Part shown: positions 546 through 55,643 of the stretch, piece after piece
Position numbering within the stretch: the stretch's first letter is position 1
Layout: the number at the start of each line of letters is the position of its first letter
Virus record (IMG/VR): IMGVR_UViG_3300025120_000040
Span: 892-64,891 of that record
DNA length: 64,000 nt
Origin: a virus
Taxonomy: Duplodnaviria > Caudoviricetes
Reading direction: 5' to 3' (one strand)
The notes under the pieces: model-generated
Told to the model about the DNA's origin: nothing
The model's database searches: none
What the model saw: the letters and a program-made list of their open reading frames with translations, nothing else
Program-made: the position numbers and the translations under genes

Positions 546-548
546 CTG

Positions 549-577
549 TTGCACTCCATAACTAATTTTAGTATAAT
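549..577 (+). promoter_or_regulatory. sigma70-type promoter
   Basis: TTGCAC (549-554), 17-nt spacer, TATAAT (572-577); AGGAG RBS before ATG 619. Confidence 0.7.
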
Positions 578-618
578 ATACGTATATTAATACCAATTGC
601 AATTAGGAGAAATAACAA

Positions 619-948: not shown

Positions 949-949
949 A

Positions 950-1498
950 ATGGCAACACTAATGAACGTTAACGACCAAGCCATGCCAATGGGTGCAGAC
1001 TCAGGAGCAGGTGAGGGAGCGACTGGTCCAAAGAGACACTTCAAACATATTGGAGAACTTGTAGACGGTGGAGCAAAGGTAGTAATCATGTACCGAACTG
1101 TACCTGGTGAGCCCAACAACTGTCTAGTAGTAGGAACAAAATTCTTACCGGACTTATATCACAACTCATTAATGAAGGCTGTGGAATCAGCAGGTGGACA
1201 AGACGCTGACGAGTTTGCGGATTTTGCCAGCAGACAAACATTCCCAGACGGAACTAATATGTTGGCCATGATGCACAACGACAACTTTATCAAGAAGTTC
1301 AAGACCAATGAGATCATGGTCACTTTTGGCAACACTGCCGATGGAAGAATACTTCTTAACAAGTTGAACGAGATGGTTGCGAAGGATAAAGGCATATCTG
1401 TGAAAGATATGGCCAAGGATCCAGAAGCACCGGAACCAGCACCAGTCAAGAAGACTACCAAGAAAGCGGATGCCAAAAAGACAACCGCCAAAGAATAG
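950..1498 (+). CDS. hypothetical protein
   Basis: 182-aa ORF with GGAGG RBS, coupled to the upstream gene; basic C-terminal tail. Confidence 0.8.
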   Translation: MATLMNVNDQAMPMGADSGAGEGATGPKRHFKHIGELVDGGAKVVIMYRTVPGEPNNCLVVGTKFLPDLYHNSLMKAVESAGGQDADEFADFASRQTFPDGTNMLAMMHNDNFIKKFKTNEIMVTFGNTADGRILLNKLNEMVAKDKGISVKDMAKDPEAPEPAPVKKTTKKADAKKTTAKE

Positions 1499-1814
1499 CA
1501 CTTGGGTACAGTTGACGAAGGATTTCGTCAAGGAATGGCCGGAGGTTCTAGAGGGATTACACTTCCAGAACATGCCGGTCAAGTACCTAATGTATATCAA
1601 TATCATACTAAAAAACAATCTCACTATACACTACGACATAGCCAAAGAGTTAAAAACGAAGAAGCAAGATACTATTGCTAGATTCTTAAAAAAAACGATA
1701 GAGCAAAACTATATGAAAATAAAAAGTGTGGATATGAAGTTTAACATACCTGCTTTGAAAAGAGATATGGAATCTCGGACTTCTTTGATTATGGCTAAAA
1801 CTTTTAAGAAATAG
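1470..1814 (+). CDS. hypothetical protein
   Basis: 114-aa ORF overlapping the upstream gene and converging on the enzyme cluster. Confidence 0.7.
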   Translation: MPKRQPPKNSTWVQLTKDFVKEWPEVLEGLHFQNMPVKYLMYINIILKNNLTIHYDIAKELKTKKQDTIARFLKKTIEQNYMKIKSVDMKFNIPALKRDMESRTSLIMAKTFKK

Positions 1815-3102
1815 AATTGAACTTTTCTTTCAACCATTCTAATTCATAAGACAGCATTAAGGCTTCTTTATCACCATTCACTTCTTTGTAGTATTCTACG
1901 GCATCGAGAGCACCTCTTTGTACCAGCAGTGCATATCGACCTTTACCAAGTTCACACCATTTCTTCAGTCTAAATTGAGATTGGACGGTTGGTTTCATCT
2001 CACACAATTTGAGTACTTCTCTAAATGCTACACGCCAACTTATCTCAGGTGACTGATTGAAATGACTTGTTCCACACAACTGAGGTACTACTGTGTGTGG
2101 TTGCGATAGTGTGAAATCTAAATTAGGATGTATTGTGGACAAGCAAAGACGTTTGTTGTACAATATCACCGCCCTGTGTCCGTACTCTAAACCGGTCACT
2201 GGATTTTTAGCATGGAAAATATAATGACAGGCTTCTCGCAGTCTATCAGGTTGAAAAGTGAAGTCAAACTTATCATCTAATTCTATTGTGGGGAATACTG
2301 CAAAGAAATAATCTGTATCACTCATAGCGGCCGCAGTGTGGTACGCCTGTGTCCTTCCTTTGACTCCTTGTATTCTTTTGGCCCTAGGATATTTCTCTTT
2401 TAACACTTGCCAATACTTTTCAGCACTTGGTTCATCGTAAGACAGGAACACTATGTCCATGAGTTTTGTTTCGTAATCATAGTCAAAATGTACATGCCTA
2501 TCAAAATCATATAACTGTTTGATGCTTCTACCACTCGGTACTAGTATGATATCTTTTGTTTTACCCCAAGTATACATCTTCTCGTCTTCCCAGAAACTAG
2601 GATAAAAATTAGGTTTGTCCACATCACAGTGTCGATTGGTCATCCATGTGTAAAATTCAGTGCCCGTGTTGTACGCATTCACTGGATCGGAAAGTTTGAA
2701 CGTGGTGGTAGACAGAGGGCGTTGGAACAAAGTTGGATGAGCATGGAAGTTGATATCTTTGAAATCACGCAGGAACTTGAGGCCATGCATCTGTTTTTTG
2801 AATTCCTTTGTTGGGATCAACATCACATTGCCTTCTTGATTTAGTCCTCCCATGGGGTGCGTGGTGTACCAAACGTGAAGTTGATCACGCTCGTGCTGTT
2901 CAGGTATGTAATCTACATCAATTGTTTTTAAATCAACAAAGTTGGCAAAGAACCAGAAGTACTCTGTTTCAATATCATCCACAACTGCTTTTAGAATATC
3001 AAGGTAACTGCCAACAAATGGTACGACCCTGGTGTTCACCAGCGGTGACTCCATGTGCTTCACATGTTGGAATCTAACCTGTATACTGTCGAATCCAGTC
3101 AT
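1804..3102 (-). CDS. glycosyltransferase-like protein (two GT-A-like halves)
   Basis: C-terminal half (MDIVFLSYDEP...AKRIQGVKG...AAA.SDTDYFF) is clearly paralogous to 14109..15005. Confidence 0.6.
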   Translation of the reverse strand: MTGFDSIQVRFQHVKHMESPLVNTRVVPFVGSYLDILKAVVDDIETEYFWFFANFVDLKTIDVDYIPEQHERDQLHVWYTTHPMGGLNQEGNVMLIPTKEFKKQMHGLKFLRDFKDINFHAHPTLFQRPLSTTTFKLSDPVNAYNTGTEFYTWMTNRHCDVDKPNFYPSFWEDEKMYTWGKTKDIILVPSGRSIKQLYDFDRHVHFDYDYETKLMDIVFLSYDEPSAEKYWQVLKEKYPRAKRIQGVKGRTQAYHTAAAMSDTDYFFAVFPTIELDDKFDFTFQPDRLREACHYIFHAKNPVTGLEYGHRAVILYNKRLCLSTIHPNLDFTLSQPHTVVPQLCGTSHFNQSPEISWRVAFREVLKLCEMKPTVQSQFRLKKWCELGKGRYALLVQRGALDAVEYYKEVNGDKEALMLSYELEWLKEKFNSIS

Positions 3103-4027
3103 AGTAATTTTCCAATCCTTGCCTCAGCGAGAACTCTGGTTCATACTCTAAGAGATCCCGTGCCCTACTGATGTCCAGTGTTCCTCTCATTGGATACAAT
3201 TTGTGCATTCCTATGTCCACTATATCAGAATCACTTCCTGTGATATCTACTATTGTCTCGGCCAGCGTCCTTAGGCTGGTTGCGTTACCCGCCGTGATGT
3301 TGAAACTGGTATTGGCAACTTCTGAACTTGCGGCCTTTATGATACCATATGCGGCATCCTGCCTGTAAGTGAAGTCAACTTTGTTCTCACCATTGTGCAA
3401 TTCTATTGTTTGATTGTTCATTGCCTTCGCAAAAAACTTAGATACCACCCTGTCTGGAAGATCTCCAGGTCCGTACACCCCACTGGGTCTTACTATTGTG
3501 TAATTCAGTCCATCTCTTTTGGCGAAAAGTTTTGTTAACCTCTCACCTGTAAGTTTTGCCTCGCCATATATGTTCTGCGGCTTCGTGCTTGAATCTTCCT
3601 TTGTTCCGTCTACGAAATCACCGTACACCATGCTACTGCTGATGTATACAAATTTCTTTGTGTCAAATTCAGCGGCATGCCACAGTAGGTTGGTCGTTGT
3701 TCCGATCACCTTTGGTATACCTTCGATCGGATCTTGATCTACAATCTTGGCCCTGGGATATGTGGCCAAGTGTATCACGATATCGGGACGTGTAGAAAAT
3801 GCTTTCAGGCATACCAGTCTATCGAGTACGTCGCCTTTGATCACATTGACGTTGTTTTGTGACCAGTTGCGTGTTCTCCATGCGATAAGTTTGTTCAACT
3901 CTACCTTTGTCAGTATGTCATAGGTGTCCTCATTGTCTACACATGTGATCCTGTGTCCATCATTGGAAAGTTTTTCAATTATTTTGGATCCTATGAATCC
4001 AAGTCCGCCTGTTATTAGATATTTCAT
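3074..4027 (-). CDS. NAD-dependent NDP-sugar epimerase/dehydratase (extended SDR)
   Basis: TGGLGFIG Rossmann motif, SSSMVYG, YGEAK (YxxxK), VYGPG. Confidence 0.92.
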   Translation of the reverse strand: MKYLITGGLGFIGSKIIEKLSNDGHRITCVDNEDTYDILTKVELNKLIAWRTRNWSQNNVNVIKGDVLDRLVCLKAFSTRPDIVIHLATYPRAKIVDQDPIEGIPKVIGTTTNLLWHAAEFDTKKFVYISSSMVYGDFVDGTKEDSSTKPQNIYGEAKLTGERLTKLFAKRDGLNYTIVRPSGVYGPGDLPDRVVSKFFAKAMNNQTIELHNGENKVDFTYRQDAAYGIIKAASSEVANTSFNITAGNATSLRTLAETIVDITGSDSDIVDIGMHKLYPMRGTLDISRARDLLEYEPEFSLRQGLENYYDWIRQYTG

Positions 4028-5496
4028 CCTAGAACTTTTACCCCGTATTTGTTGGTAAACGCTTTACCGTCTTCTCTATCGTTTACGATCGGTTGTCCTT
4101 TTATGTTCAGACTGGTGTTCAAAAGTATCGGGCAACCCGTCTGTTTTTTCCATTCCGTTAACAAAGCATGAAACCCTGGATTATCCGTCTTACGCACCGT
4201 TTGAACCCTAGAAGTGTGATCATGATGTATTATGGCAGGGAAGTCTTTACCAGCAGTACACGCCGCTGTAAATTGCATATAAGGGGTGTTTTGAACTGCT
4301 TTAGGCAGGGTGAAATACTCGTGTACATCCTCTTCCAATATGGCCGGAGCGAACGGTCTGAACTTCTGTCTTTTCTTTATTGAGTTTACCAAATCCTTGA
4401 TGTCCTCACCCCTGGGGTCTGCCAACAGTGATCTATTACCAAGTGCCCTAGGGCCAAACTCCGCCCTGCCACTTGCCACTCCCACCATCTTGTTTTCCTT
4501 CAATTCTTTTATCAGACTGTCCACAGGGTATTCACCATCTATGTTGTGTCCAAGGAATGGGTGTTCCCACTTGAGGTGTCTCTTGTGGTGTGCGGCTATG
4601 CAACCCAGGCTAGATCCCGAATCTCCAGGGTTGGGTATTATCCATATGTTGTCAAACAATCCTAGATTCGCAAGTGTTCTGTTTGCGGCACAGTTCAACG
4701 CTACTCCGCCAGCGTATACTAGATTCTTACTGCCATACTTGGATGCCCTCAGGAAGAGGTCTGCAAGTATTTCCTCCGTGACTGCCTGTATGCTCGCGGC
4801 AATGTCCATAACATCTGCTTCTGGATGCCAGTCTTTCAATCCTCTGTGTAAATTCTTCTTAAGTTTGAACGGTGACTGATAAACGAAGTCATCGTATATC
4901 TGTTGTTTGTACTTTGGTGTGCCATATGCGGCCATGCCCATCAGGATGTATTCCTCTTCTGCAGGTTTCAGTCCACAACGGTGTGTGAATGCAGAATATA
5001 ATATGCCCACCGAGTGTGGATAGTTGATTGTTTCTTTCCTCTCGATCCAAATTTTATCAGCAGTGGATATGCTGACTGTCTCCCATTCGCCTATCGCATC
5101 AACTGTTAGAATAGTTGCACCTTCGTCTTTGAACGGCGACGTGAAATATCCTGCCGCGGCGTGTGAGTCATGATGTTTAACATACTCGTCGATTTTGATG
5201 TTGAACATATCCAAATGCCACTGTGGCATCTCTGTATAACTTAATGCTGTCCCCCACTGTCCTGCATACAGTTGTCTCGTTTTCTTTAACAGAGGCTTCT
5301 CATAGTAAACGACTTTGTCGAATGGTCCGAATGTGTTTGCTTCATTTACTATTGCCCAATTTAAGTAATGATCATTTTTAACTTTTGAATAACGTTCCGA
5401 GTGTGCGGCCCATAATATCTCACCTATGCCTGAACTGTAATCAACAACACTCATAGAAGCATCATGATTCATACAGTTTATTCCTAATATTTTCAT
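4024..5496 (-). CDS. carbamoyltransferase, NodU/CmcH family
   Basis: ILGIN..HDAS, ERYSKVKND, HHDSHAAAGYF, GGVALNC, EFGPRALGNRSLLADP, FRPFAP, LLNTSLNIKGQPIV. Confidence 0.95.
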   Translation of the reverse strand: MKILGINCMNHDASMSVVDYSSGIGEILWAAHSERYSKVKNDHYLNWAIVNEANTFGPFDKVVYYEKPLLKKTRQLYAGQWGTALSYTEMPQWHLDMFNIKIDEYVKHHDSHAAAGYFTSPFKDEGATILTVDAIGEWETVSISTADKIWIERKETINYPHSVGILYSAFTHRCGLKPAEEEYILMGMAAYGTPKYKQQIYDDFVYQSPFKLKKNLHRGLKDWHPEADVMDIAASIQAVTEEILADLFLRASKYGSKNLVYAGGVALNCAANRTLANLGLFDNIWIIPNPGDSGSSLGCIAAHHKRHLKWEHPFLGHNIDGEYPVDSLIKELKENKMVGVASGRAEFGPRALGNRSLLADPRGEDIKDLVNSIKKRQKFRPFAPAILEEDVHEYFTLPKAVQNTPYMQFTAACTAGKDFPAIIHHDHTSRVQTVRKTDNPGFHALLTEWKKQTGCPILLNTSLNIKGQPIVNDREDGKAFTNKYGVKVLG

Positions 5497-5930
5497 TTAC
5501 TATGTGGTCCTATGTTGCCGTGCTTTTCTAATATATCCTGCTTGATCAAGAACGCCCACATTGTTGCTTCCATGTGTCCCACTTTGAAATCGTAGTGTGT
5601 TGGTTCTACAAACATTTTGTTTGTGTCCTCGAATCTACCTTCTTTGATCGTGTCCATCCATACTGTGTAATCTGCATCAAATTCTGTTCTTGTTTGATCT
5701 GTCGGACAAATAAAATCTGCTATCACGACTCTATTTTTATCAATGGCTTCCTCCGCAAATGACCACATCCTCAACGACTGCCTCTTTCTACCTTCGGGTG
5801 AAAAGTCCCAATCGTCTGCTTCCTTCCTAACTTCATCTGCATTCAACCATACAGCATTGAACATAGGCACCAGTAATTTTGCCAAAGTTGTCTTACCTGA
5901 TCCAGGCAAACCCATTATCAGTATCTTCAT
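5493..5930 (-). CDS. cysC: adenylylsulfate (APS) kinase-like protein, short phage form
   Basis: Walker A GLPGSGKTT, WLNADEVR, DWDFSxEGR, DFICP; only 145 aa. Confidence 0.75.
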   Translation of the reverse strand: MKILIMGLPGSGKTTLAKLLVPMFNAVWLNADEVRKEADDWDFSPEGRKRQSLRMWSFAEEAIDKNRVVIADFICPTDQTRTEFDADYTVWMDTIKEGRFEDTNKMFVEPTHYDFKVGHMEATMWAFLIKQDILEKHGNIGPHSK

Positions 5931-6262
5931 CTACCTATCTCCCATCCTATTACCACACCGTAATTCTCTTTGCCGTTGTGCTTTTCGTATGCTGGGGAAA
6001 TAAACAATCCTCCTGCTTTGTATCTGATCATTGGAAGTATGTCATTTGATTTGTAACCTGTCACAAGTCCTAATTCAATGTTCCAAAACTCATCTAATTC
6101 AAACTCCTTGCCAACATATGCACTAATCCTGTCCTCAGAATTGTAATACACCCCTGCAATCGAATTATCCACTGTGCATCTTGCGTGTGGGTGTATGTTG
6201 TTGTAGTCCGCTTCTAGGCCCACATGCATGGACAGTGCCAAAAATAATCCTAAACAATTCAT
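5927..6262 (-). CDS. hypothetical protein, possible small beta-barrel membrane protein
   Basis: Start taken at 6262 (MNCLGLFLAL, ATGA overlap); alternating hydrophobic strands ending YGVVIGWEI. Confidence 0.6.
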   Translation of the reverse strand: MNCLGLFLALSMHVGLEADYNNIHPHARCTVDNSIAGVYYNSEDRISAYVGKEFELDEFWNIELGLVTGYKSNDILPMIRYKAGGLFISPAYEKHNGKENYGVVIGWEIGR

Positions 6263-6816
6263 CTTATGCTGAACCATCCCTTCGCCCTGTCTCTGAACTT
6301 CTCCCATTCACTCAACTCTATATCATATTCAAAATTTTGTGTGGTTAAATTAACCTGCACTTCCTTGGCTCCGTTCTTTAGATGGAACTTTCTTGCCATG
6401 TCTGTGAGCGGACTCAGTGTTACTAGCCTGTTGAGATGATTGCTTTCTTTGATCATCTTGTACACTTCGTTGACCATGTGCTTACCGCCGCCTTTCTTCT
6501 TGGCCCACACCGTGTAGGCTATTGCCACGCTACCCTGTACGCCTGCCCTGTGTACTGCCTGCATGGCGGCATCTTTGCTTAACTTGTCCATATCCTCAAC
6601 ACTCTCCGGTATACCGTGTGTGAATGCGAAACACATAACGGCCGCTATATCGCCCTCTTCGTCCTTGATTCCGTATATCTTCCTGCCGTACGCCTGCCTG
6701 AATTCCAGACTCAGTTCCGGCCTCACAGGATCTTCCGTCACATCTATGAACGGCAGTTCCATCAGTTCGAACTTAGGTTTCTTTTCCAGAACCTGTTTAA
6801 TTTTTGCCAGTACCAT
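6259..6816 (-). CDS. GNAT-fold protein resembling the malonyl-CoA decarboxylase catalytic domain
   Basis: AIAYTVW..KKGGGK, LVTLSP and FHLKNGA motifs. Confidence 0.55.
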   Translation of the reverse strand: MVLAKIKQVLEKKPKFELMELPFIDVTEDPVRPELSLEFRQAYGRKIYGIKDEEGDIAAVMCFAFTHGIPESVEDMDKLSKDAAMQAVHRAGVQGSVAIAYTVWAKKKGGGKHMVNEVYKMIKESNHLNRLVTLSPLTDMARKFHLKNGAKEVQVNLTTQNFEYDIELSEWEKFRDRAKGWFSIR

Positions 6817-6817
6817 T

Positions 6818-6922
6818 TTATTTGTATATGAATGGGTCTTTCTTCTTTAATTCTTTTAATCTTTTCCTGTAAGCTCTTTCCTGTTTGAACTTCAGCCAAA
6901 GATTTTTTATCCATGTGAACAT
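6818..6922 (-). CDS. small basic hypothetical protein, 34 aa
   Basis: Read manually: MFTWIKNLWLKFKQERAYRKRLKELKKKDPFIYK. GGAGG RBS; fills the gap exactly. Confidence 0.7.
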   Translation of the reverse strand: MFTWIKNLWLKFKQERAYRKRLKELKKKDPFIYK

Positions 6923-7713
6923 TATTTTCCTCCTGTTAATTTATTAAACATTGGTAACATTAATTTTACAGCATCTCGGTGTGCTTCGTCAAGTGGATGT
7001 GTAGTGGCTCTGGGATAATCTTCCATCAATGTCCATTGATTGAAACCCATCATCCTTGGTCCAAAACTAAACCATTTGGTAAAATCTATTTCATCGTGTA
7101 GTGCCTTCATGAAATTATCCTGGTCTTTGTGCTGTTCAAACTCCTTGTAAAACAGGCTGTTGTCTGCTAGTGTGAACAAGAATGGTATTTGCTTCTTCTC
7201 AAGTATGTTCTGTAACCAGATAATGCTCTTCCAACTGAGATAGGTCTCATGATATTGGTTTGCACCGTGCTTGTATATGGCTTCTGCGAACGGTTGCACT
7301 CCGGTCTCAACCATTGAGTCTGCTCTACGTTTCCATTGTTCCAATTGTACTTCTGATCCTGCAAGTGCTTGATGTCTTTCATCACTTGCCATTTTTGTAT
7401 CCCATGGCGATATTGTTGTCCAACGTGTCTTTTCTAAGTCCTTGTGCCTGGACATGGCCCAGTCATACCTGGAGAGGAAACTCCACATCACTATCACACA
7501 CCCTATATCATCATTGTTGTGGACTGCATCAAATACACGCCTGGCTATCCCCGAGTTGCCACTGCCTGGGTGTGCCGTACATACATATTCATGATCTGTT
7601 GGCTTTAGCCTGTATGCCCATGATTTTTTGCTTGGCACTTTGCCATTTTGGTCGTCACTCAACTCATGACCAAAAGTGAAACTACAACCACCTGCTATTA
7701 ATTTTTTACTCAT
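6922..7713 (-). CDS. SGNH/GDSL-like hydrolase/acyltransferase-fold protein
   Basis: GGCSFTFG block I, PGSGN block II, C-terminal THP...AH. Confidence 0.6.
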   Translation of the reverse strand: MSKKLIAGGCSFTFGHELSDDQNGKVPSKKSWAYRLKPTDHEYVCTAHPGSGNSGIARRVFDAVHNNDDIGCVIVMWSFLSRYDWAMSRHKDLEKTRWTTISPWDTKMASDERHQALAGSEVQLEQWKRRADSMVETGVQPFAEAIYKHGANQYHETYLSWKSIIWLQNILEKKQIPFLFTLADNSLFYKEFEQHKDQDNFMKALHDEIDFTKWFSFGPRMMGFNQWTLMEDYPRATTHPLDEAHRDAVKLMLPMFNKLTGGK

Positions 7714-8884
7714 ATATCTGTAATACTTTATTTAAAAGTGGAAACATATCACCAAAATTTTCTTTCCTATACTGATCTGTTTGCAATATTCTTCTTTTTC
7801 TTTCTGCACGTATCTCCGGAGAGTCTCTGTCAGCGGCGTTCATGAATCTTATGCTTGGTTGGTAGTCTGTGAGCATGTTATACCTGTCTGTGACTATGTC
7901 CTTTACCTGCCGTGGTAATGTCTGTATGTTGAACACATCAGGATCAAAGCAAGTGTTCACATAAAAGAACTTAGGTTGGAACTGTGCCACCCACAATGCC
8001 ATCTTGGCCCAATTGAACACATTGAATATATTCACTGTTGAACATATTTGAAAGTCCATGTTAGGTGTTTTCATTTCTTTAAACTTAACAAGATTCTGGT
8101 TCACTTCTCTCCACTTTGCAGGATGTCTTTGATACTCGAAAGGTTCTCCCACGTCATCAATGCTGAACGCTACTTCCACGTGCTTGAAACAACTCCATAG
8201 GTCGAATATTTCCTGTGGTGGTAACTGTGTGCCGTTGGTGTTGTAGTGTATGTCTATGTTCTTGGCATATCCCTTCTCGACACAGTGCATCAGTATTTTA
8301 AAGTGGTCCTTGATCATGAACGGTTCGCCGCCTGTGAATTCAAAGTACTCCACATATTTTAGATCCTCCTGCAACTCCTCAAAAAATTGTGGGTTACGTT
8401 TTGGCCACCCGCCTTCTTTCAATTGTTTTCTAGCAACAAGATTATCTCCTCCCTTGGCCGTTTCATAATCTATTTCTTCCTGAGCCCATTTTGATGAACT
8501 CCATGATCCGCATATCCTACATTTTAAATTACACACGTTGCCCAACTTAAAGTCAATAAACTTGAGGGATGGCTCGCTATTAGGTGTCCAGTTTTCTAAA
8601 CTGCTACGCATTTTGTAGATCGAGTTTTGTCTTTTGGATGTTTTGCCAGCGTCTTCCTCCTGCCAACAGCTCTGACAACCTTTAGGACGTTCACCGTTTC
8701 TAAATTTTGTTCTAAGATTGTCCATGTATTCCGTATCTTGTATAGACTTAAGACTTTGTTCGTACACTTTGACACCAGGAATACTGCCCTTGTACAAACA
8801 GCAAGGAGACGCACCACCATTTACATCAACTTCTAAATGATTCCACGGTAATGGGCATATGTTTGAATCTATATACTTGTCCAC
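7706..8884 (-). CDS. radical SAM protein with N-terminal twitch domain
   Basis: CPLPW..PCC..CQSC, CNLKCRIC, GGEPF, YNTNG. Confidence 0.92.
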   Translation of the reverse strand: MDKYIDSNICPLPWNHLEVDVNGGASPCCLYKGSIPGVKVYEQSLKSIQDTEYMDNLRTKFRNGERPKGCQSCWQEEDAGKTSKRQNSIYKMRSSLENWTPNSEPSLKFIDFKLGNVCNLKCRICGSWSSSKWAQEEIDYETAKGGDNLVARKQLKEGGWPKRNPQFFEELQEDLKYVEYFEFTGGEPFMIKDHFKILMHCVEKGYAKNIDIHYNTNGTQLPPQEIFDLWSCFKHVEVAFSIDDVGEPFEYQRHPAKWREVNQNLVKFKEMKTPNMDFQICSTVNIFNVFNWAKMALWVAQFQPKFFYVNTCFDPDVFNIQTLPRQVKDIVTDRYNMLTDYQPSIRFMNAADRDSPEIRAERKRRILQTDQYRKENFGDMFPLLNKVLQIYE

Positions 8885-10152: not shown

Positions 10153-11422
10153 ACAATTCCTTCAATTCAGGAAATGTTTCAAGGATATTTTCGTCTCTGA
10201 TCACGTCCATCTTTTTCATTGTGTCTTTGAACTGTTGCATGTCTTTGCTGTTGTCTCTTCTCATCATGTAGTCCAACCCAGATTCAAATCCCTTGGTTGC
10301 CCTGGTGAGATTATCTAGAGGACGCAACCATTCTAGGTGTGACTCGATCTTCTCTTTGACTCTTTGTTTGTATGAGTCTGGTAAAAGATCAATCCTCTGT
10401 GCGTATGGATACTGCAATAAGTTGAAGTTGAAATCTTGTGGTTTCAATAATCCTTGATCTACCCAATTCCTGTGGAAGTCTGATATGTGTAATGCATTTA
10501 TAAGTCCAACTGTGCTTGATATGTAGAAGTCTACTTGCGGACAAACTTCTAACATACGTTTCCTGTTTGCTATTACGTCTTTCCACACAGTGCCTTTACG
10601 CATGTATTCTCCCCTGGCACCTTCTGCGTCTAGACTTGCACCTATCGATACTGAATCAAACTTGTTCCATAATTCCAACACGTCAATGTCTTTGTATTTT
10701 GTTCTTGTGAAGTTTGTGTTGTAAATTAATCTCACGTGATACATCTTACGTCTGTCCAATTCTTTTAATATCCTGTAGTGTTCTTCCATGATTATTGGTT
10801 CGCCACCTGCGAAGTAAAACTGTTCCACATGTTCGAACTGTTCCAACATCTGATCCCATATGTCATTACTGCTACGGCCAACTTTCATTATCTTCGCATG
10901 ATTGGGAGGAGAACCTGTAAGTTTTTTGTGATCTTCATACCAATTACTGCTGAACCATGTACCACAACTTCTACACGCTAGGTTACATAGGTTACTGAAT
11001 CTTATATCCCAATACTTTATGACGAAATCTGCTGTGCCATCTTCCTGTGTGTTCTCAACCATACCTATGTTGTGTCCAAAGTGTTTGTTCGAACTTAGAC
11101 GCAGTGAGAAGAACCCCGACTTCTCTTGATCATAACATTTCGTACAATGTTTGCTTGGCTTTGCGGCCAGCATGTTTTTCCTTATACCCTTCATCTCATC
11201 GTTGTTAAAGACTTCTTCCATTGAATTCTTGTTAAGATCACCAACAGGATATTTGTCCAATGCAAAACAACAAGGGTACGCTCTACCGTCAGGGAAAGCA
11301 TGTATGTGCAACCATGGCATCATACAGAATGTGTCATTGTCTATCAACAACTCCTTCTCTTTAGGAGTCATATCTTTGATCTTTAGTTTCTCAGGCTCTT
11401 TGGCGCCATAATCATATGCCAC
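10139..11422 (-). CDS. radical SAM protein with N-terminal twitch domain
   Basis: CMMPW..PCC..CTKC, CNLACRSC, GGEPI, YNTN. Confidence 0.92.
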   Translation of the reverse strand: MAYDYGAKEPEKLKIKDMTPKEKELLIDNDTFCMMPWLHIHAFPDGRAYPCCFALDKYPVGDLNKNSMEEVFNNDEMKGIRKNMLAAKPSKHCTKCYDQEKSGFFSLRLSSNKHFGHNIGMVENTQEDGTADFVIKYWDIRFSNLCNLACRSCGTWFSSNWYEDHKKLTGSPPNHAKIMKVGRSSNDIWDQMLEQFEHVEQFYFAGGEPIIMEEHYRILKELDRRKMYHVRLIYNTNFTRTKYKDIDVLELWNKFDSVSIGASLDAEGARGEYMRKGTVWKDVIANRKRMLEVCPQVDFYISSTVGLINALHISDFHRNWVDQGLLKPQDFNFNLLQYPYAQRIDLLPDSYKQRVKEKIESHLEWLRPLDNLTRATKGFESGLDYMMRRDNSKDMQQFKDTMKKMDVIRDENILETFPELKELYEEN

Positions 11423-12755
11423 TATACCATTCTCCTATTATTGGGAAAGTCTTTTCGAAGTTCTTTCCTGATCTTTTGTCGTATTGACTGTAAAACGCTT
11501 TGAAGTCTTTCTGTAGTTTACTTTGTTCGGCCGCACCTGCATGTGGTGTTTTGACAACATCTAAATAATCTATAAGTCTCTGTGTTTGGTTAGTTTCCAT
11601 ATGTTCTAGATGTTTTTCATTGTTATTTAAAAACTTTACCAAGTCTCCTTTAAATTTATTTCTTAGGTCATCGGGTAGCACAAGAGGTGATTGGAAGCTC
11701 GGGAACCGTAATATGTTCAATGTAAAGTTGACCTTCGGTCCATACACCTTACTTGCACTCTTGAACCATATTATCCTCTCTAGCAGTTCTGGCAACGACT
11801 CTAAACACAGTGCATTTATGGTACACATATTATGAATCTCTGATGGGACTTTATCAACCATCATGTGTAAGAAATTTGAGAACCATTCGCCGTAATCTAA
11901 TCCGTCTCTGATGTATTCGCCTTGTTTGTGTGTTGCTTCCATGCTGGTATACAGATGAAAGTTTTTAAATCCTTTTAGTTTAGTTTTGAATCTATCAATA
12001 ATGCTTTGCTTTGCACCCAGGTTAGAGTTGATTGCAATACGTATATCAGGATTCATTTTTTCACCTTGTGTTTCTATCCAATCTAACAGTCTCCACAAGT
12101 TGGGTGACATCATAGGTTCTCCACCTGTTATCCTCAGTTCATCTAAACTCTTGTGTAGGTCCGTTTCCCACCATTTGTAAAATGCTTCCACGTACGGATT
12201 TGTTTCGTCTTTCTTGTATGGCTCTGCACTTTCATGACTGTGTGTGAAGTGATTACGCCCATCTGTTTTCATATCTGTGTATGGTCCTTGCCTCTTGATA
12301 TTGTTTGCCCACGTAGAACTAAATGCAGGATTACAATATGTACAAGCAAAGTTACAGGTCCTATCGAATGCTATCTCCAGTGTCTTTAGATTGACATCTG
12401 TGTCAGCATCAGTTTTGTGTGCGTAGTCCAATGCTTCGTTTGTGAATATTTTTGATTTGTAGACCCTGTCGCTAATATTATCTCTTTTGATATCTTCTAT
12501 CTTCCAGCAGTATTCACACCCTTTTGGTCTGTCGCCGCACTGCATCTGTTTACGTTCTGCTTTCTTTTGTACTGTGTTGTGTATTGCACTAGGATTTGTT
12601 TTTATTGCTTCAAGATCAATCTTGTGCGGAAGTGGATGGTGACAACTTGTGGTCATACCACTACCCAACCATATTGTTGCATTATACCATTTGGCTCCGC
12701 AGAAACTTGCTGACTTAGGATCCAGTATTTGTTTTTTATATTCTAAATCGTTCAT
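11412..12755 (-). CDS. radical SAM protein with N-terminal twitch domain
   Basis: CGAKW..SCHHP..CEYCW, CNFACTYC, TGGEPMM. Confidence 0.92.
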   Translation of the reverse strand: MNDLEYKKQILDPKSASFCGAKWYNATIWLGSGMTTSCHHPLPHKIDLEAIKTNPSAIHNTVQKKAERKQMQCGDRPKGCEYCWKIEDIKRDNISDRVYKSKIFTNEALDYAHKTDADTDVNLKTLEIAFDRTCNFACTYCNPAFSSTWANNIKRQGPYTDMKTDGRNHFTHSHESAEPYKKDETNPYVEAFYKWWETDLHKSLDELRITGGEPMMSPNLWRLLDWIETQGEKMNPDIRIAINSNLGAKQSIIDRFKTKLKGFKNFHLYTSMEATHKQGEYIRDGLDYGEWFSNFLHMMVDKVPSEIHNMCTINALCLESLPELLERIIWFKSASKVYGPKVNFTLNILRFPSFQSPLVLPDDLRNKFKGDLVKFLNNNEKHLEHMETNQTQRLIDYLDVVKTPHAGAAEQSKLQKDFKAFYSQYDKRSGKNFEKTFPIIGEWYSGI

Positions 12756-14122
12756 GCGTTTTTACACTCCTCCCAGAATTCTTCCATCTCAGGGAAAGTG
12801 TTCAATAAGTTTGTTTGTCTTCTCCGATCGTGTTCGTTAAAAAATGCGTAAAAATTCTTTTTTTGTTGCGTACTTACGTCCGTGTTTTCTCGCCAGTATG
12901 CGAGATTGCGTTGCATTTTTTGAATCTCGAAGTCCTTGAATATGTGTAACCCGTTGTCCTCCCCGGAATGGTTCTGCATGTACTTAATGTTATCCTCATG
13001 TATGCTCTGGTACGCCTCCGGTAGCATCGTGATCTGTTGCCATGCGGGTTGCCTCAGCAGTGGCACATCGAACCACACTCTCTGGTAGGTCTTTGAGTAC
13101 TTGGTACGCAGTTCCAATATTTTCTCCAGCAGTTTATCCATGCTCGTGATACTTAGATTGTTGTATGTGCATATGAATGTGATGGAATTACGACCCGGGA
13201 TCCTGTCAAGAAACTCCTCCACGTTGTCCATCATGTAGTTGAAATCCAGGCCGTCACGTATGTACTCCGCACGTTTGCCAAATGCGTCAACTGACACGAA
13301 CTGCATCATGTGTTCAACCTTCTCCTGCATACATATCTCCTGTGCCATGTTGAAGTACTTCTCTTTCAACTTCTTGTCTGGTGGACACATGTTACTGGTC
13401 ACGTTGAGGTGCAGATCTTGTTTGGGATGATCTATTATGTACTGGAAAACCTTGTAGGTGTTCACGTCCATCATGGGTTCACCACCGGTCATACGGAAGT
13501 GCTTTAAATTCTTGTACAGTGTTGGCCACCACTTCCAGAAAGCGGTCACGTAAGGGTTCTCCTCCCTGTTGGGTATGGGCTTCCTGCGACCTTGGAAGTG
13601 CTCTGGTGCGTTGTGGGAAGGGGTGGTAGGATATTCGCCGTATCTGTCCACCTCCTTGGCCCACGTGGTCGAGAACTGTGGTGAACAATAACTGCACTTG
13701 AAGTTACAAGCGTTGTTGAAGTTCACCTCCACGTATCTCGGCGTCCAATGTTCGTCTATTGGATTCTTTCTAATATCCTCGAAGTCCTGCATGGCCCATG
13801 GCTCACCAGACCTGTAGTGCCTGTCTGACATCTCCCCGGTCTTCTCCATGTTCCAGCAGTATGAACAACCCTCGGGTTGTTCTCCCTGGAGCATCTGTTG
13901 TCGTTGATTCATTTTCTCTGCGGTGTTGTGCAGTGCGGCTGGATTGTTTTTCAACTTCTCTGCATCAATGTTGTGCAATGGTGGATGATAGCAACTGTTG
14001 GTCAGTCCCGTGGGCAGGTGCAGTGAGGTCTGATTCCACTTGGCCAGGCACATGGTAGGAGAAACTGTCTCGAGTATTTCCTTGGCCTTCAATGCGTCCT
14101 GTTTGTAGTTACTGGTACTCAC
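12752..14122 (-). CDS. radical SAM protein with N-terminal twitch domain
   Basis: CLAKW..SCYHP..CSYCW, CNFKCSYC, TGGEPMM. Confidence 0.92.
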   Translation of the reverse strand: MSTSNYKQDALKAKEILETVSPTMCLAKWNQTSLHLPTGLTNSCYHPPLHNIDAEKLKNNPAALHNTAEKMNQRQQMLQGEQPEGCSYCWNMEKTGEMSDRHYRSGEPWAMQDFEDIRKNPIDEHWTPRYVEVNFNNACNFKCSYCSPQFSTTWAKEVDRYGEYPTTPSHNAPEHFQGRRKPIPNREENPYVTAFWKWWPTLYKNLKHFRMTGGEPMMDVNTYKVFQYIIDHPKQDLHLNVTSNMCPPDKKLKEKYFNMAQEICMQEKVEHMMQFVSVDAFGKRAEYIRDGLDFNYMMDNVEEFLDRIPGRNSITFICTYNNLSITSMDKLLEKILELRTKYSKTYQRVWFDVPLLRQPAWQQITMLPEAYQSIHEDNIKYMQNHSGEDNGLHIFKDFEIQKMQRNLAYWRENTDVSTQQKKNFYAFFNEHDRRRQTNLLNTFPEMEEFWEECKNA

Positions 14123-15005
14123 GGTCTTGCACTCCCTTGTTTATGTGCGGAGGGATGACGAACCGATAGAACCTGCTGTCATCGTCATCGTACTCCGCAA
14201 TTGGCATGTCCAGTTGTTGCCTCAGGCTGTTACCGTACATCAACAGATCTGTGTCTATGTCTGTAGGTGACTGATCCTTGTAGTACAACTCCATGTTATC
14301 CAGATCACGTATCTTGAAATGCTCATTTTTGGCCTCTATCACTGTGTTGAAACAACCCATCCTCGCTCCCAACATGGCGTACTTGCCAAACTCTACGTCT
14401 GCACCCACTGTACACCAAGTGCTGAGTGTCCTCAGATTAGTCGGCCACACTTTTTGGAAATCATTGGCAGGTATGGGTTTGCCTTTGTTCGTACTCATTT
14501 TTACACCCTCCCTGAAGCCTGCCACAAAGGCCTGCTGTTCAGAACCATTTATTATGGTAGTGGAGTAACAGTTATGCAGATTCTCATGTGGCACACCCCA
14601 GCAGAAATCTATCTGGTTCTCCTCCGAGTCAGCATTCTCGTGTGTCCTCATGTTCAAGCACGTTTCCTTTGACCAACCAACTAGTCCTCCATTACCGTAC
14701 ACTAGCCCATTAATGTTATTTTTTGCTCGCCAACGATGAACTGCCTTGGGATCGGTCTTCGTCCAATCTAGGGTTTGTAATAAAAAAGTTTCATCAATAA
14801 CGTTGTCACCGTCAACACTTATAAAGAAGTCGGTCTCTGCCAACTCGGCCGCGGCCTTATGGGCGTTGTCAAACCCCACAACACCATCAACACGCTTGGC
14901 CCATGGCACCTTGTTCTTGAGATCCGCCCAATTCTCTTCCTTGTTGGGCTCCTTGAAACTGATGTACACGAAGTCCAGTTCGCTTATTCTCGTTCTATCA
15001 GCCAT
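14109..15005 (-). CDS. glycosyltransferase-like protein (GT-A fold)
   Basis: DFVYISFKEP...AKRVDGVVG...FISVDGDN (DxD motif), LVYGNGG. Confidence 0.7.
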   Translation of the reverse strand: MADRTRISELDFVYISFKEPNKEENWADLKNKVPWAKRVDGVVGFDNAHKAAAELAETDFFISVDGDNVIDETFLLQTLDWTKTDPKAVHRWRAKNNINGLVYGNGGLVGWSKETCLNMRTHENADSEENQIDFCWGVPHENLHNCYSTTIINGSEQQAFVAGFREGVKMSTNKGKPIPANDFQKVWPTNLRTLSTWCTVGADVEFGKYAMLGARMGCFNTVIEAKNEHFKIRDLDNMELYYKDQSPTDIDTDLLMYGNSLRQQLDMPIAEYDDDDSRFYRFVIPPHINKGVQDREYQ

Positions 15006-15286
15006 GCTTTGCCTCCTTCCACTATTCCTGTGGGCCAGTGTATGTCATCGTCTTGGAACACATATCCTTTTTTTGCTTCTTTTAAAACGCTGTATTGTGT
15101 TTTTGGTTTTGGCTTTGGCTTCAACACTATCTCACCATCTTTGATCATTAGCTCTTCTTCATTGTACTGTAGTGCCCACAACTTCTTGTCATGGGTCACT
15201 TCGTGTTCTACGCCATCAACAGTCACAAAAAGTTTCCTAGGTTCTCTCTTTGGCAGATTCGCCATTGCCTCAAAAAATCCTGGCAT
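14984..15286 (-). CDS. hypothetical protein
   Basis: ORF track 14984..15325; ATG 15286 (MPGFF) preceded by AGGAG. Confidence 0.7.
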   Translation of the reverse strand: MPGFFEAMANLPKREPRKLFVTVDGVEHEVTHDKKLWALQYNEEELMIKDGEIVLKPKPKPKTQYSVLKEAKKGYVFQDDDIHWPTGIVEGGKAWLIERE

Positions 15287-16064
15287 GTAACTCCTTGTTG
15301 TGATAGTGCCAAACTCTGCTGACACGTGTTTCGCCTATGTACACTGCATCTCCGGATCTGTTGGGATATAGATATTCGTTTTGATCCTTTGCCCTCATGG
15401 TATTGTTTACACCTGGTTTGTGATGAATGAATTTAAACCAATCATAATCTATAAGATCACAGGCAGTAGGATCCATAATCCTATATGCCAACGCAAACAC
15501 CACGTCTGTGCTAGGGTATTCGTCATGACACGAAATCAACATCTGTGTTTTGACCTGTTTCCAATTCTTCACTATGTGTTCTGCTATCTCATAGAATTTC
15601 TTTGCTTTTGCACTCCTACGGAAATACATCAATCCATTGTAGATATTGGGTAAATGGTTCCTCATGAACAATTTCCTGTATGGCGTTTGTTTTACAACAT
15701 TGTCCCGGTAGTCAAAACAGTCAACACTGAATACTAAATCGTGTTGCCACAGGTGATTCCACCACCAATCAGTGTTTGTGGTCCACAACATGTCCGCCTC
15801 CAATTTTATTGTGTGTGTAAAAGGTGTGAGACGGAACGCTTTGTACTCGTTCGCCCATTTGATATCGTGCAAGGCACTGTCGTCTTCCCCTATGACTTTC
15901 ACTACGTCAACGTGTTCGCTGGAAAATTTACTTGATTGATCTGTCACCACACATACCTTGTTGTTTTTGTTCCAACGTTTTATGCTCTTGGCCAAAGTTA
16001 TAGACAGTTCCACATAATCAACTTTGCCATTGTTCTGTGCGAACCAAAGAAATCCTTTAGACAT
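15270..16064 (-). CDS. glycosyltransferase-like protein (GT8/nucleotide-diphospho-sugar transferase-like)
   Basis: Start 16064 (MSKGFLWFAQN) after AGGAG; TPF.HTIKLEADM, YNGLMYF, TDVVFALA; paralog of 16057..16809. Confidence 0.65.
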   Translation of the reverse strand: MSKGFLWFAQNNGKVDYVELSITLAKSIKRWNKNNKVCVVTDQSSKFSSEHVDVVKVIGEDDSALHDIKWANEYKAFRLTPFTHTIKLEADMLWTTNTDWWWNHLWQHDLVFSVDCFDYRDNVVKQTPYRKLFMRNHLPNIYNGLMYFRRSAKAKKFYEIAEHIVKNWKQVKTQMLISCHDEYPSTDVVFALAYRIMDPTACDLIDYDWFKFIHHKPGVNNTMRAKDQNEYLYPNRSGDAVYIGETRVSRVWHYHNKELHARIF

Positions 16065-16809
16065 TGAATATCTCCTTGTTGAGTACATGGACATCTTGAT
16101 TTTGTACACAGGATATCTGATCATTGTATTTCCATGCAATACCTTCATTGGTCATCTCAACCACTTCGCAGTCTGGCGGCAGTGTTGCCAATGCAAATGG
16201 CATCTTTTCGTAGCCCACAAATCCGTTTATCTGTTGCAGTGCCATTGCGAACAGATAGTCATTACGTAGATTCTTGGCATATATCCTGTACATCTCGTTG
16301 AAGTAATTGTAGTTCTTCTTTATGTATTTTACCGTGTCAAATATCTTTCTGGTCTTTTCGTTTTTCTTGAACAGTAGCACAGTCGCCCACACCATGGGTA
16401 TCATGCTCCACTTCCTTTGATCAAACGTGTTCCTGCCTGTCAGATCATATGCTGTGTCTGGCACAAGGAAATCATATTCTGTGTCAAAGAGCTCTAACAA
16501 GTTGTCCGTGAAACAGAAATAATCGATGTCCATCACAAGCGTCTTGTCGTATGGAGAAAGTTCGTAGGCAAGATGCCTATCTACATTGTTCCAAGATTTT
16601 CCCAGTTTGGTGTTACCCAGTTCTGGTTCAATGAATTTGTAATTTATAAAGCCCAATGGTTTGATTTTACAGAAAGTTTCAAAGTTAGTCACTACGGTGA
16701 TTTCTACTTTGAGATTTTTCTTTACTAGGGCCACACACCTCTCCAGTATCTTGTGATACCGTGTGTGTTCTGTGTCAAAACAGAATAGTAATACTCCTTG
16801 CGTCATCAT
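16057..16809 (-). CDS. glycosyltransferase-like protein (GT8/nucleotide-diphospho-sugar transferase-like)
   Basis: SPYDKTLVMDIDY (DxD), WATVLLF, RNDYLFAMA, HVLNK. Confidence 0.7.
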   Translation of the reverse strand: MMTQGVLLFCFDTEHTRYHKILERCVALVKKNLKVEITVVTNFETFCKIKPLGFINYKFIEPELGNTKLGKSWNNVDRHLAYELSPYDKTLVMDIDYFCFTDNLLELFDTEYDFLVPDTAYDLTGRNTFDQRKWSMIPMVWATVLLFKKNEKTRKIFDTVKYIKKNYNYFNEMYRIYAKNLRNDYLFAMALQQINGFVGYEKMPFALATLPPDCEVVEMTNEGIAWKYNDQISCVQNQDVHVLNKEIFNV

Positions 16810-17123
16810 TCACCTTTTTTTGTAAAAGTTTCGTATATTTGGTGATATGCGTTCAAGGCCTCCTGGTTCCGTTCAATCAATCTTGCTAGGAAATCGTCTG
16901 CGTCTGTTATCTCAACTGGATTTTTATTTGTGTCCAGTATGAAAAACTTACTGCTGTTTTCCTTTAGTGTCCTCACAAGACATATTGTCCCAGGATCGGC
17001 ACGGAAAAGATTTCCATTATATGCCAGTACCTGTCGTGAGTGTGCTTTCTCCAGAGCGTTGCGTTTTGCGATCGCTATGTCGTAAGAAAGATCTGATTGT
17101 TTTTTGAGTTCGCGAATATCCAT
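16806..17123 (-). CDS. hypothetical protein (first gene of the enzyme cluster)
   Basis: ORF track 16806..17138; ATG 17123 (MDIRELKK) lies at the predicted transcription start. Confidence 0.7.
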   Translation of the reverse strand: MDIRELKKQSDLSYDIAIAKRNALEKAHSRQVLAYNGNLFRADPGTICLVRTLKENSSKFFILDTNKNPVEITDADDFLARLIERNQEALNAYHQIYETFTKKGE

Positions 17124-17129
17124 ACCACA

Positions 17130-17158
17130 ATTATACAATAATTATGGTTAAATTTCAA
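17130..17158 (-). promoter_or_regulatory. sigma70-type promoter of the enzyme cluster
   Basis: Minus strand TTGAAA (17158-17153), 17-nt spacer, TATAAT (17135-17130). Confidence 0.7.
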
Positions 17159-17174
17159 CCTGGTAAAATTATTA

Positions 17175-18131: not shown

Positions 18132-18135
18132 ATTG

Positions 18136-54118: not shown

Positions 54119-54153
54119 AAAACCCTCGGCTTTTACGAGTCGGGGGTTTTTTT
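54119..54153 (+). terminator. rho-independent terminator, probably bidirectional
   Basis: AAAACCCTCGGCT-TTTACG-AGTCGGGGGTTTT hairpin followed by a T-run, between convergent genes. Confidence 0.85.
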
Positions 54154-55589: not shown

Positions 55590-55612
55590 GATGGTATTTA
55601 AAGCCAAAAAGA

Positions 55613-55641: not shown

Positions 55642-55643
55642 AG

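Follow-up and report, generated by a model that had tools for sequence, protein, structure and literature searches.

We describe here a block of 18 co-oriented genes lying next to the fibre-like genes of an uncultured marine phage, in a 64,000-nucleotide (nt) stretch of the IMG/VR virus record IMGVR_UViG_3300025120_000040 (positions 892 to 64,891; by the window we mean this whole stretch). With about as much confidence as doubt, we read the block as a self-contained pathway of soluble enzymes that would act in the cytoplasm of the infected cell to build or edit a carbohydrate chain. A preliminary description of this DNA had already proposed a role in the handling of glycans or sugars, and this proposal is supported by a short-chain dehydrogenase/reductase (SDR), by GT8-like and GT-A-fold proteins of the glycosyltransferase (GT) type, by a TobZ-type carbamoyltransferase (CT) and by radical S-adenosylmethionine (SAM) enzymes of a family present in bacterial polysaccharide loci. 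The block and its upstream boundary consist of the following features, given in the direction of reading with protein lengths in amino acids (aa).

17124..17174, minus strand: promoter-like element (TTGAAA, 17 nt, TATAAT, 6 nt to the ATG) between the fibre-like gene f18 and g17
16806..17123, minus strand: g17, 105 aa, conserved first gene with orthologues in 55 of 62 related loci (48-87% identity)
16057..16809, minus strand: g16, predicted GT8-like retaining GT-A glycosyltransferase fold with D94-x-D96
15270..16148, minus strand: g15, GT8-like paralogue of g16, probable start at 16064
14984..15325, minus strand: g14, ~100 aa, orthologues in 49 of the 62 loci (27-70% identity)
14109..15005, minus strand: g13, predicted N-terminal GT-A/nucleotidyltransferase fold with an invariant D65-G66-D67
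7706..14122, minus strand: five tandem N-terminal-twitch radical SAM genes (NF033640), g12 12752-14122, g11 11412-12755, g10 10139-11422, g9 8869-10152 and g8 7706-8884
6922..7713, minus strand: g7, SGNH-like protein
6818..6922, minus strand: pep34, 34-aa open reading frame (ORF), MFTWIKNLWLKFKQERAYRKRLKELKKKDPFIYK
6259..6816, minus strand: g6, weakly GNAT/malonyl-CoA-decarboxylase-like, accessory
5927..6307, minus strand: g5, 126 aa, weak match to the PHROG named PagP (phrog_3600, 5.1e-8), accessory
5493..5930, minus strand: g4, 145-aa P-loop kinase-like protein (phrog_10255, 4.3e-29), accessory
4024..5496, minus strand: g3, TobZ/NodU-type ATP- and carbamoyl-phosphate-dependent carbamoyltransferase, 490 aa
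3074..4027, minus strand: g2, extended SDR of the nucleotide-sugar epimerase/dehydratase type (PF01370 5.3e-42, phrog_540 1.5e-53)
1804..3102, minus strand: g1, 432 aa, C-terminal half homologous to g13

These genes form a string of minus-strand ORFs running from 17138 to 1804, overlapping or abutting throughout, and the first of them most likely starts at ATG 17123, where the preliminary description had placed the end of the block. The sole internal gap (6817-6921) is filled exactly by the 34-aa ORF on the same strand and the block therefore has 18 genes, not the 17 first counted, their co-orientation and their overlap or abutment being as described. None of the 18 products has a hydrophobic stretch of transmembrane grade (maximum KD19 1.25), and searches of Pfam, PHROG and NCBIfam found no Wzx, Wzy, ABC or polyprenyl-phosphate transferase family in the block.

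Using g10 as the query of a scan, we collected 62 related viral loci (50-95% identity), among which many gene absences are contig ends. Each of the five radical SAM genes has orthologues of its own, at 40% identity or more, in 55-62 of these loci, and the other widely kept genes are g13 (60 loci), g15 (59), g16 (57), g7 (54) and g3 (50, at 48-92% identity), while g6, g4 and full-length g5 occur in 37, 12 and 8 loci. Compared across these phage contigs, the block recurs as a cluster and its genes do not shuffle independently of each other. What is swapped among relatives is the accessory set g4, g5 and g6 and the alleles of g9, g2 and g1, each of which exists in two classes (~50% or 31-38% identity vs 57-97%; for g1, 31-38% and 57-84%), and the core stays. 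The allele classes of g9 (8869-10152), g2 (3074-4027) and g1 (1804-3102) are independent of the similarity of neighbouring genes. The pattern indicates probable mosaic replacement by recombination inside the cassette, and such swapping around a stable core resembles, by analogy, that of variable glycan loci.

The five radical SAM enzymes announced in the preliminary description all belong to NF033640 (NCBIfam N_Twi_rSAM, twitch domain-containing radical SAM protein; curated cut-off 170 bits), with full-length scores of 364.6 bits for g8, 321.6 for g9, 415.3 for g10, 299.5 for g11 and 326.8 for g12. The whole window holds seven genes of this family, in all of which C33, C51, C93, C96, C146, C150, C153, G206, G207 and E208 are invariant; the four N-terminal cysteines, of an auxiliary cluster, precede the CxxxCxxC core, the GGE SAM motif is kept, and g8-g10 match PF13186 at residues ~10-97, ahead of PF04055. 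Since the paralogues are 21-27% identical and each has its own orthologues, they represent old duplications of which every copy has been kept. The two NF033640 genes outside the block (51347-52423, plus strand, 202 bits, and 54152-55186, minus strand, 179 bits) are placed between a gp46-like nuclease gene and a baseplate gene, and a SegE-type GIY-YIG homing endonuclease gene (55176-55868) directly adjoins the second. The family was a catalogue entry only, whereas here five diverged paralogues share one operon; a paper search for the NF033640 accession found none, other paper searches gave no assay of the family, and literature searches found no paper describing the cassette or NF033640. In its accessible part, a 2017 survey (PMC5332604) goes no further than a count of 12 radical SAM genes for a single T4-like environmental genome. 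A record of cultured type, that of Vibrio phage K566 (L073, OZ196521), has four N-twitch radical SAM genes in one cluster (6720-13456) with a PagP-annotated gene 3 kb away, and the 20.9 kb of it that were read show no peptide or CT match.

Cellular genomes seldom carry NF033640. Scores over the cut-off were absent from all 14 control genomes; they were reached by 2 further genomes among 400 Pseudomonadota and by 3 among 400 Bacteroidota, and one more fell narrowly short. Polysaccharide genes adjoin it in four of the five cellular loci read, from which we infer a tie of the family to cytoplasmic polysaccharide work. In G116, the chromosomal contig C19 (with DnaE and AccA) carries an ABC-type O-antigen locus with RmlC, RmlD, Wzm, three more N-twitch paralogues, a TylF-type O-methyltransferase, a second methyltransferase, a WbsX glycosyltransferase and an 854-aa protein (L235, 8579-11143, minus strand) in which Wzt (ABC_tran and Wzt_C, a domain that binds glycan ends) is fused to an N-twitch radical SAM enzyme; this fusion points to the finished chain as a candidate substrate. 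In G182 the NF033640 gene stands beside a GT2 and an SDR, in G565 four paralogues accompany a methyltransferase-GT2 fusion, and in G720 one gene lies beside a Maf-like/GT1 protein. The G116 locus and the phage block have in common a tandem N-twitch array, nucleotide-sugar enzymes (RmlC and RmlD vs the SDR), a GT and tailoring enzymes that transfer groups. They differ in that the G116 locus has an exporter (Wzm/Wzt) and methyltransferases, whereas the phage block has no membrane component and possesses instead a carbamoyltransferase, SGNH-like and GNAT-like proteins and a microprotein.

As for the sugar enzymes proper, the NDP-sugar epimerase of the preliminary description holds at the level of the SDR epimerase/dehydratase family to which g2 belongs by its PF01370 match, with every NCBIfam equivalog under its cut-off. 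The four GT-like proteins fare unequally. The predicted structure of g16 (AF2 pLDDT 93.4) gave 354 Foldseek matches at E<=1e-3, headed by LgtC (1.2e-6, TM 0.50) and then GlyE, the UGGT catalytic domain and glycogenin, and its D94 and D96 do not vary among the 24 sequences aligned; sequence searches of Pfam and PDB gave no match, so that its GT8-like assignment is one of predicted fold and not of CAZy family. Homology supports g15 (hhalign with g16 96%, E 4e-9; phrog_1903 3.7e-10), in which E90-x-D92 replaces the DxD. The model of g13 is poorer (AF2 pLDDT 69.7; best Foldseek E 5e-3, to B4GALNT1), and for its residues 3-150 all 50 rows shown by VIA-align (Z 8.7-5.9) are of the GT-A/nucleotidyltransferase fold, so this protein could, instead of a GT, be a nucleotidyltransferase. 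Homology to g13 extends to the C-terminal half of g1 (hhalign 99.2%, E 6e-20), in which the D-G-D is not kept. There are thus two homologous pairs, g16/g15 and g13/g1 C-terminal half, among proteins without a family at the sequence level; profiles of g13, g16, g15, g1, g7 and g6 against the sequences of solved structures gave nothing usable, and neither g17 nor g14 has a match in Pfam, PHROG or NCBIfam.

The remaining tailoring proteins are of mixed standing. In g7, a putative SGNH assignment is supported by S11 of block I, G52/N53 and D242-x-x-H245, which all 24 aligned sequences share, and by Atlas look-alikes annotated as DUF6071 (33%) or Lipase_GDSL (10%), and it has no Pfam/HMM or PDB sequence match. 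The GNAT-like protein is a weak lead only: 15 of 21 orthologues of g6 match PF05292 under threshold (best E 0.0011), and its Atlas clusters carry MCD or Acetyltransf_1 on 13-45% of their members. The APS kinase and the sulfation dependent on PAPS that the preliminary description proposed are not supported. The match of g4 to PF01583 (35 bits) covers profile positions 5-91 of 152 only, its scores for TIGR00455 (24 bits vs a cut-off of 138.7) and NF004041 (26.3 bits vs 127) are far too low, solved APS kinases are matched at E ~0.01, no better than LRRK2 or adenylate kinases, and no sulfotransferase or sulfurylase was seen among the window ORFs.

The carbamoyltransferase, described earlier as NodU-type, is confirmed by its matches to PF02543 (6.7e-42, 144.6 bits) and PF16861 (1.3e-54, 184.8 bits), that is by Kae1-like and YrdC-like domains (Carbam_trans_N and Carbam_trans_C). 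Scoring 147.7 bits with the NodU equivalog NF041651, the cut-off of which is 1000, g3 is by these profiles a family member and not NodU itself. It has the two-domain architecture of TobZ, NodU, NovN and GdmN (best solved matches NovN 4e-52, GdmN, and TobZ 2e-40), and it differs from them in length (490 aa vs 576-702 in the solved O-carbamoyltransferase chains) and in the genetic coupling of its phage subfamily to a microprotein, a partner of which we saw no mention for the characterised enzymes, no specific search for it having been made. CT homologues at 28-36% identity were found in 148 phage records, mostly of cyanophages; T4-like marine phages (cyanophages, pelagiphages) carry carbamoyltransferases and sugar enzymes as accessory 'LPS' (lipopolysaccharide) genes. 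A 2010 comparison (PMC3037559), in the part available, lists the gene without a function. The CT loci of Phage C48C1 and Pelagibacter phage HTVC008M, unlike the present one, have no DPFIYK peptide and no match to a radical SAM enzyme of the window's type nearby. A phage-borne TobZ-type enzyme with the same Pfam domains as g3 is described in the accessible part of Yang et al. 2021 (PMC8670742): it prefers single strands and converts 5-hydroxymethylcytosine (5hmC) in DNA to 5-carbamoyloxymethylcytosine. It is accompanied there by genes for a thymidylate-synthase homologue, a MazG-like protein and a deaminase, none of which was found here or in relatives. Three residues, W408, G421 and R423, are linked with the modification of cytosine in an eLife paper.

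The 34-aa ORF, pep34, overlaps the stop of g7 with its start, ends 1 nt before the start of g6, and was found in all 55 related loci that reach the place. For its last 17 codons there are 41 versions at the nucleotide level; 16 of the 17 show synonymous changes, and the replacements, all conservative, fall at five positions; because of this excess of synonymous changes over replacements, pep34 is a protein-coding gene under extreme purifying selection. The N-terminal half is a variable amphipathic helix and the conserved C-terminal part ends in DPFIYK. A degenerate DNA pattern for the last residues matches at least 120 viral stretches, and all of the 80 that we fetched, with up to 7 kb of DNA on each side, encode a true basic microprotein ending in DPFIYK. 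In these 80 loci a CT is present anywhere in 71, within 3 kb downstream in 69, and with its start at -10 to +40 nt from the peptide stop in 40, whereas an N-twitch radical SAM gene is present in 30 and an SGNH-like gene, by a crude test, in 21 (directly flanking the peptide in 11). The microprotein thus travels with the CT, often without radical SAM genes. Among the nine loci without a CT, two (L115 and L133) have, coupled to the peptide, a gene that begins with an SGNH block I; three loci without a CT match (L078, L089 and L140) encode forms of ~70-90 aa with a Cys/His-rich insert (eight Cys, three His) ahead of the basic helix and the DPFIYK tail.

The peptide-CT pair also occurs in other genomic settings. 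In L103 and L113, which were scanned with Pfam, it lies between a Toprim primase and a DnaB-type helicase, and in L075, L093 and L152 it is flanked by ORFs that resemble these in size and spacing; that lineage also has genes for a UvsW-like helicase, a 2OG-Fe(II) oxygenase and Pol III alpha in the vicinity. The only copy found in a cultured phage, which came from a motif scan of the locus, is an unannotated 36-codon ORF of RsoM2USA (L070, MG752970; 11029-11136) ending in QDPFIYK, between RsoM2USA_201 and RsoM2USA_200. It is part of a module with a g11-type radical SAM gene (52.9% identity, full length), an SGNH-like gene, the peptide, a second SGNH-like gene and a CT (46.7% identity). The words 'radical' and 'carbamoyl' occur 0 times in the RsoM2USA genome paper. 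A tblastn search of pep34 against cultured phages gave none, the low-complexity filter of BLAST being able to hide matches. In prokaryote genomes the pattern matched 25 stretches, of which ~15 are true, all in metagenome-assembled or uncultured-isolate records, and the others are chance matches; cassette genes accompany 12 of the ~15, and these copies are probably mis-binned phage DNA that says nothing of the host. Across 18 loci the divergence of the N-terminal half of pep34 tracks that of the CT better than that of genes nearer by (Spearman 0.43, vs 0.28 for g7), which is weak evidence, and a complex prediction for CT and pep34 scored 0.27 with the mark at 0.32, which speaks neither for nor against binding. 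Two further ideas on the peptide were tried and rejected: its aromatic-x-Lys motifs cannot be matched to the five radical SAM enzymes as in a ribosomally synthesised and post-translationally modified peptide (RiPP), the positions varying among relatives and the peptide following the CT, and an origin by splitting of the CT gene is contradicted by g3 itself, which begins with what we take to be the family's usual N-terminal strand.

The boundary with the fibre genes bears on the expression of the block. The element at 17124..17174 is the best sigma-70-type match in positions 1-20000 (11 of 12 positions), an imperfect 11-bp inverted repeat spans its -10, and 47 of 54 related loci show such a promoter-like pattern; a hairpin with a minimum free energy of -5 or below is predicted in 35 of the 54, with differing stem sequences. 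The box ATAATTA-N2-6-TAWAAT occurs once in the window vs 0.04 expected. The T4-type late promoter word TATAAATA occurs 4 times vs 2.28 expected, which is no overall enrichment, and all four copies directly precede structural genes, none being in 1-25000, a placement that is suggestive. From these motifs, the block is probably expressed early and apart from the late fibre genes. The preliminary description had noted adjacency to fibre genes, and this is well conserved, the end of the Ser/Thr-rich gene f18 being 400 nt or less ahead of the block in 49 of 54 loci; its further claim, that the adjacency favours modification of the virion, is undercut by the conserved sigma-70-like promoter and palindrome that split the block from these genes. 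The inverted repeat ends at the start codon and its stems vary across the relatives L008-L069. Transcripts that run on from the fibre genes could form a fold covering the start of g17, whereas those begun at the promoter could not, an arrangement that recalls the control of T4 lysozyme and soc.

Taken as one pathway, the block would work as follows. Its own sigma-70-like promoter would set its expression apart from that of the late fibre genes, the SDR would supply an altered nucleotide sugar, and the GT8-like and GT-A-fold proteins would add sugars; each of the five N-twitch enzymes would perform a radical step of its own on sugar residues, be it oxidation, epimerisation, deoxygenation or C-C chemistry, and the CT, SGNH-like and GNAT-like proteins would add or move carbamoyl or acyl groups. 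Tentatively, and with more doubt than confidence, we place the target of this pathway in a lipid-linked surface polysaccharide of the host, still at the cytoplasmic face of the membrane, because the bacterial relatives act there, the phage enzymes are soluble, and a module that edits the receptor would stay linked to the fibre genes. The linkage with these genes would then be that of a receptor-binding and receptor-editing module.

Several points weigh against this reading. The host glycan as target is a guess without direct support, and a phage CT has been proven to act on DNA, as the accessible part of PMC8670742 reports. Gene neighbourhood is the sole basis for assigning a sugar substrate to NF033640, a RiPP cyclopropyl synthase (8vpo, E 2e-7) comes nearest by profile among solved radical SAM enzymes, and in the fifth bacterial locus, G493, two paralogues stand among Fe/2OG oxygenases, a WelO5-like halogenase and B12 radical SAM enzymes with no GT, a context that fits a peptide or small-molecule pathway. 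The parts of the block may not form one pathway, given that 50 of the 80 peptide loci have no radical SAM match within up to 7 kb on each side and that the RsoM2USA core has no detectable GT nearby. The promoter is a match to the consensus only, and the mRNA started from it would be almost leaderless.

A possible role for pep34 within such a pathway comes from the acyl-tyrosine shuttles described in PMC12148441. In the portion of that paper available, a C-terminal hexapeptide, FXYXXF, placed on the microprotein DltX or at the end of an MBOAT protein, carries an acyl group on its invariant Tyr and hands it over to an SGNH transferase (DltD or PatB), in Gram-positive D-alanylation and Gram-negative peptidoglycan O-acetylation. 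The end of pep34, F31-I32-Y33-K34, resembles the NgPatA peptide FIYANF in that source, with F-x-Y and an invariant Tyr (29 of 29 sequences of pep34) common to both, and pep34 is likewise encoded beside an SGNH-like protein with an intact Ser/Asp/His set. It lacks, unlike these systems, the last two positions of FXYXXF, an MBOAT or AT3 partner (by family searches of the block) and a transmembrane helix (maximum KD19 -0.72), and its commonest neighbour is a carbamoyltransferase and not an acyl-CoA enzyme, SGNH-like genes being seen in 21 of the 80 loci only by the crude test. By analogy, pep34 might work like a soluble phage counterpart of the DltX/PatA shuttle without being a member of that family, a proposal that we regard as doubtful. 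In chemical terms, an aryl carbamate such as carbamoyl-tyrosine is well suited to donate its group to a serine nucleophile. The TobZ-type enzyme would make carbamoyl-AMP and load the carbamoyl group on Tyr33 of the DPFIYK tail as an aryl carbamate, the GNAT/MCD-like g6 could likewise load an acyl group there, and the SGNH-like protein would take the group onto Ser11 and pass it to a hydroxyl of the glycan built by the GT-fold proteins and the five radical SAM enzymes. If true, this would be the first carbamoyl-tyrosine carrier, the first acyl-shuttle microprotein without an MBOAT protein, and a protein-bound intermediate for the widespread phage carbamoyltransferases.

Among other destinations for the edited glycan, the virion itself is the one that survives best, although we consider it unlikely. 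Decoration of the fibre-like or other virion proteins could change host range, stability or stickiness, and it would agree with the closeness of the Ser/Thr-rich f18 to the first cassette gene (49 of 54 loci), with the cytoplasmic location of all the enzymes, where virions are assembled, and with structural neighbours that include the protein GTs GlyE, glycogenin, UGGT and Skp1 galactosyltransferase for g16 and the PBCV-1 capsid GT A64R for g13. Fold neighbours, however, reveal no substrate, the block is set off from the fibre genes by a separate and conserved promoter of sigma-70-like type, the peptide-CT pair of other lineages and the RsoM2USA core are not beside fibre genes, and we know of no glycosylated T4-like fibre.

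A different explanation of pep34, compatible with any target, is that it acts in cis as a leader or arrest peptide in the ribosome tunnel and sets the translation of the coupled gene; to this we give a low probability. A conserved C-terminus with a variable N-terminus is the pattern of known arrest peptides, and pep34 has it, with ~17 conserved residues after the variable half. In 40 of the 80 loci its stop codon touches or overlaps the start of the gene that follows, as it does nearly in the window (1 nt before g6), and its near-invariance across phages of very different hosts fits a universal partner such as the ribosome. On the other hand, the next gene is 0.5-2.5 kb away in several loci, the tail is unchanged in the longer forms that have a Cys/His-rich insert, and the N-terminal half tracks, weakly, the divergence of the CT.

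Hypermodification of DNA, in which the CT, the GT-fold proteins, the small kinase and the radical SAM enzymes would decorate a modified base and shield the genome against restriction or CRISPR, appears quite improbable to us. T4 glucosylates 5hmC, the helix of pep34 is strongly basic, the peptide-CT pair lies between primase and helicase genes in L103 and L113, and an early-type promoter suits DNA-modifying genes. The enzyme of PMC8670742 carbamoylates 5hmC; the CTs flanked by glycosyltransferases in the same source, however, lay, in the part available, on unmodified contigs. PF00303, the thymidylate synthase/hydroxymethylase family, was found in none of five contigs of close relatives (29-55% complete) and in two of five other peptide-CT contigs (92% and 67% complete), all the contigs searched but one being incomplete, and both copies have the Asn form, PFNIASY. 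We take this Asn to mark the dUMP enzyme type and an Asp to mark dCMP hydroxymethylase, so that no gene of the dCMP-hydroxymethylase type was found in these ten related contigs. The gap between primase and helicase may moreover be a mere hot spot of insertion, and the bacterial relatives of the radical SAM enzymes are in polysaccharide loci.

Very improbable, finally, is a peptide product in the style of RiPPs, mycofactocin or pyrroloquinoline quinone, with pep34 as the precursor and its tail cross-linked by radical SAM enzymes, cut, carbamoylated and glycosylated: the extreme constraint on its 17 C-terminal residues, the frequent action of twitch/SPASM radical SAM enzymes on peptides, the RiPP enzyme as best solved match and the resemblance of G493 to a peptide or small-molecule tailoring cluster speak for it, and against it stand the company of the peptide (a CT in 71 of 80 loci vs a radical SAM gene in 30), the Vibrio phage K566 cluster of four N-twitch genes without peptide or CT in the stretch read, and the absence from the block of any RiPP recognition element or peptidase family in Pfam, PHROG and NCBIfam searches.

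By its gene content, the source of the window is a T4-like jumbo myovirus, marine and uncultured. The window takes in almost all of a viral record of 64,891 bases, and as the CheckV completeness of this record is only 18% it must be a fragment of a genome of several hundred kb. It carries the T4-type genes gp20 (portal), gp21 (protease), gp55 (late sigma factor) and gp46/47 (nuclease), together with the baseplate genes gp6, gp25 and gp5 and a 4265-aa virion protein. Its portal shares 52% identity with the portals of Sinorhizobium phage Phosso and Agrobacterium phage Atu_ph07 and 49% with that of the PA5oct group, and megablast of 25 kb against cultured phages gave no match at the DNA level. 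The 4265-aa protein is a single ORF (25378-38175, minus strand) with a match to a virion-structural PHROG of 1098.8 bits and with FG-GAP and CBM5/12 modules, placed between a gp6-like baseplate wedge gene and the fibre-like genes. Another gene, f21 (20185-21753, minus strand, 522 aa), encodes a first part of ~270 residues made mainly of Gly/Ser/Ala/Thr runs, followed by a conserved C-terminal part, and is full-length in just one of the 62 relatives. Between the portal and prohead protease genes, a 208-aa ORF (61601-62227, plus strand) has a weak match to an MptE-like (Maf-type) domain (E 4e-4), and such a domain also adjoins an N-twitch radical SAM gene in the bacterial locus L249.

The phage group to which this window belongs is very common. 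Of a test stretch, 86-94% is covered by five DNA sequencing runs from two studies (one carries the label marine metagenome and the other four seawater metagenome), and ~30% by 14 further runs; one radical SAM query led to 6227 related protein clusters, with at least 80% identity for all of the 120 matches listed. In one metatranscriptome, contigs 90-95% alike cover parts of the CT, g8, g9, g15 and g16, which places relatives in an RNA library and is not a measure of transcription; read depth does not serve to rank cassette genes against fibre genes.

With five to twelve enzymes of NF033640, blocks of this type represent a large reservoir of radical chemistry on sugars, if the preferred reading of a carbohydrate pathway is right, and the Wzt fusion offers a first concrete lead to the substrate of the family, the end of an O-antigen chain. 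Found in at least 120 viral contigs and in one cultured phage, the peptide-CT pair makes up a simple system of two genes that may represent a new group carrier or a new leader peptide. To know the target would tell whether it is the host, the virion or the DNA that these abundant marine phages re-dress.

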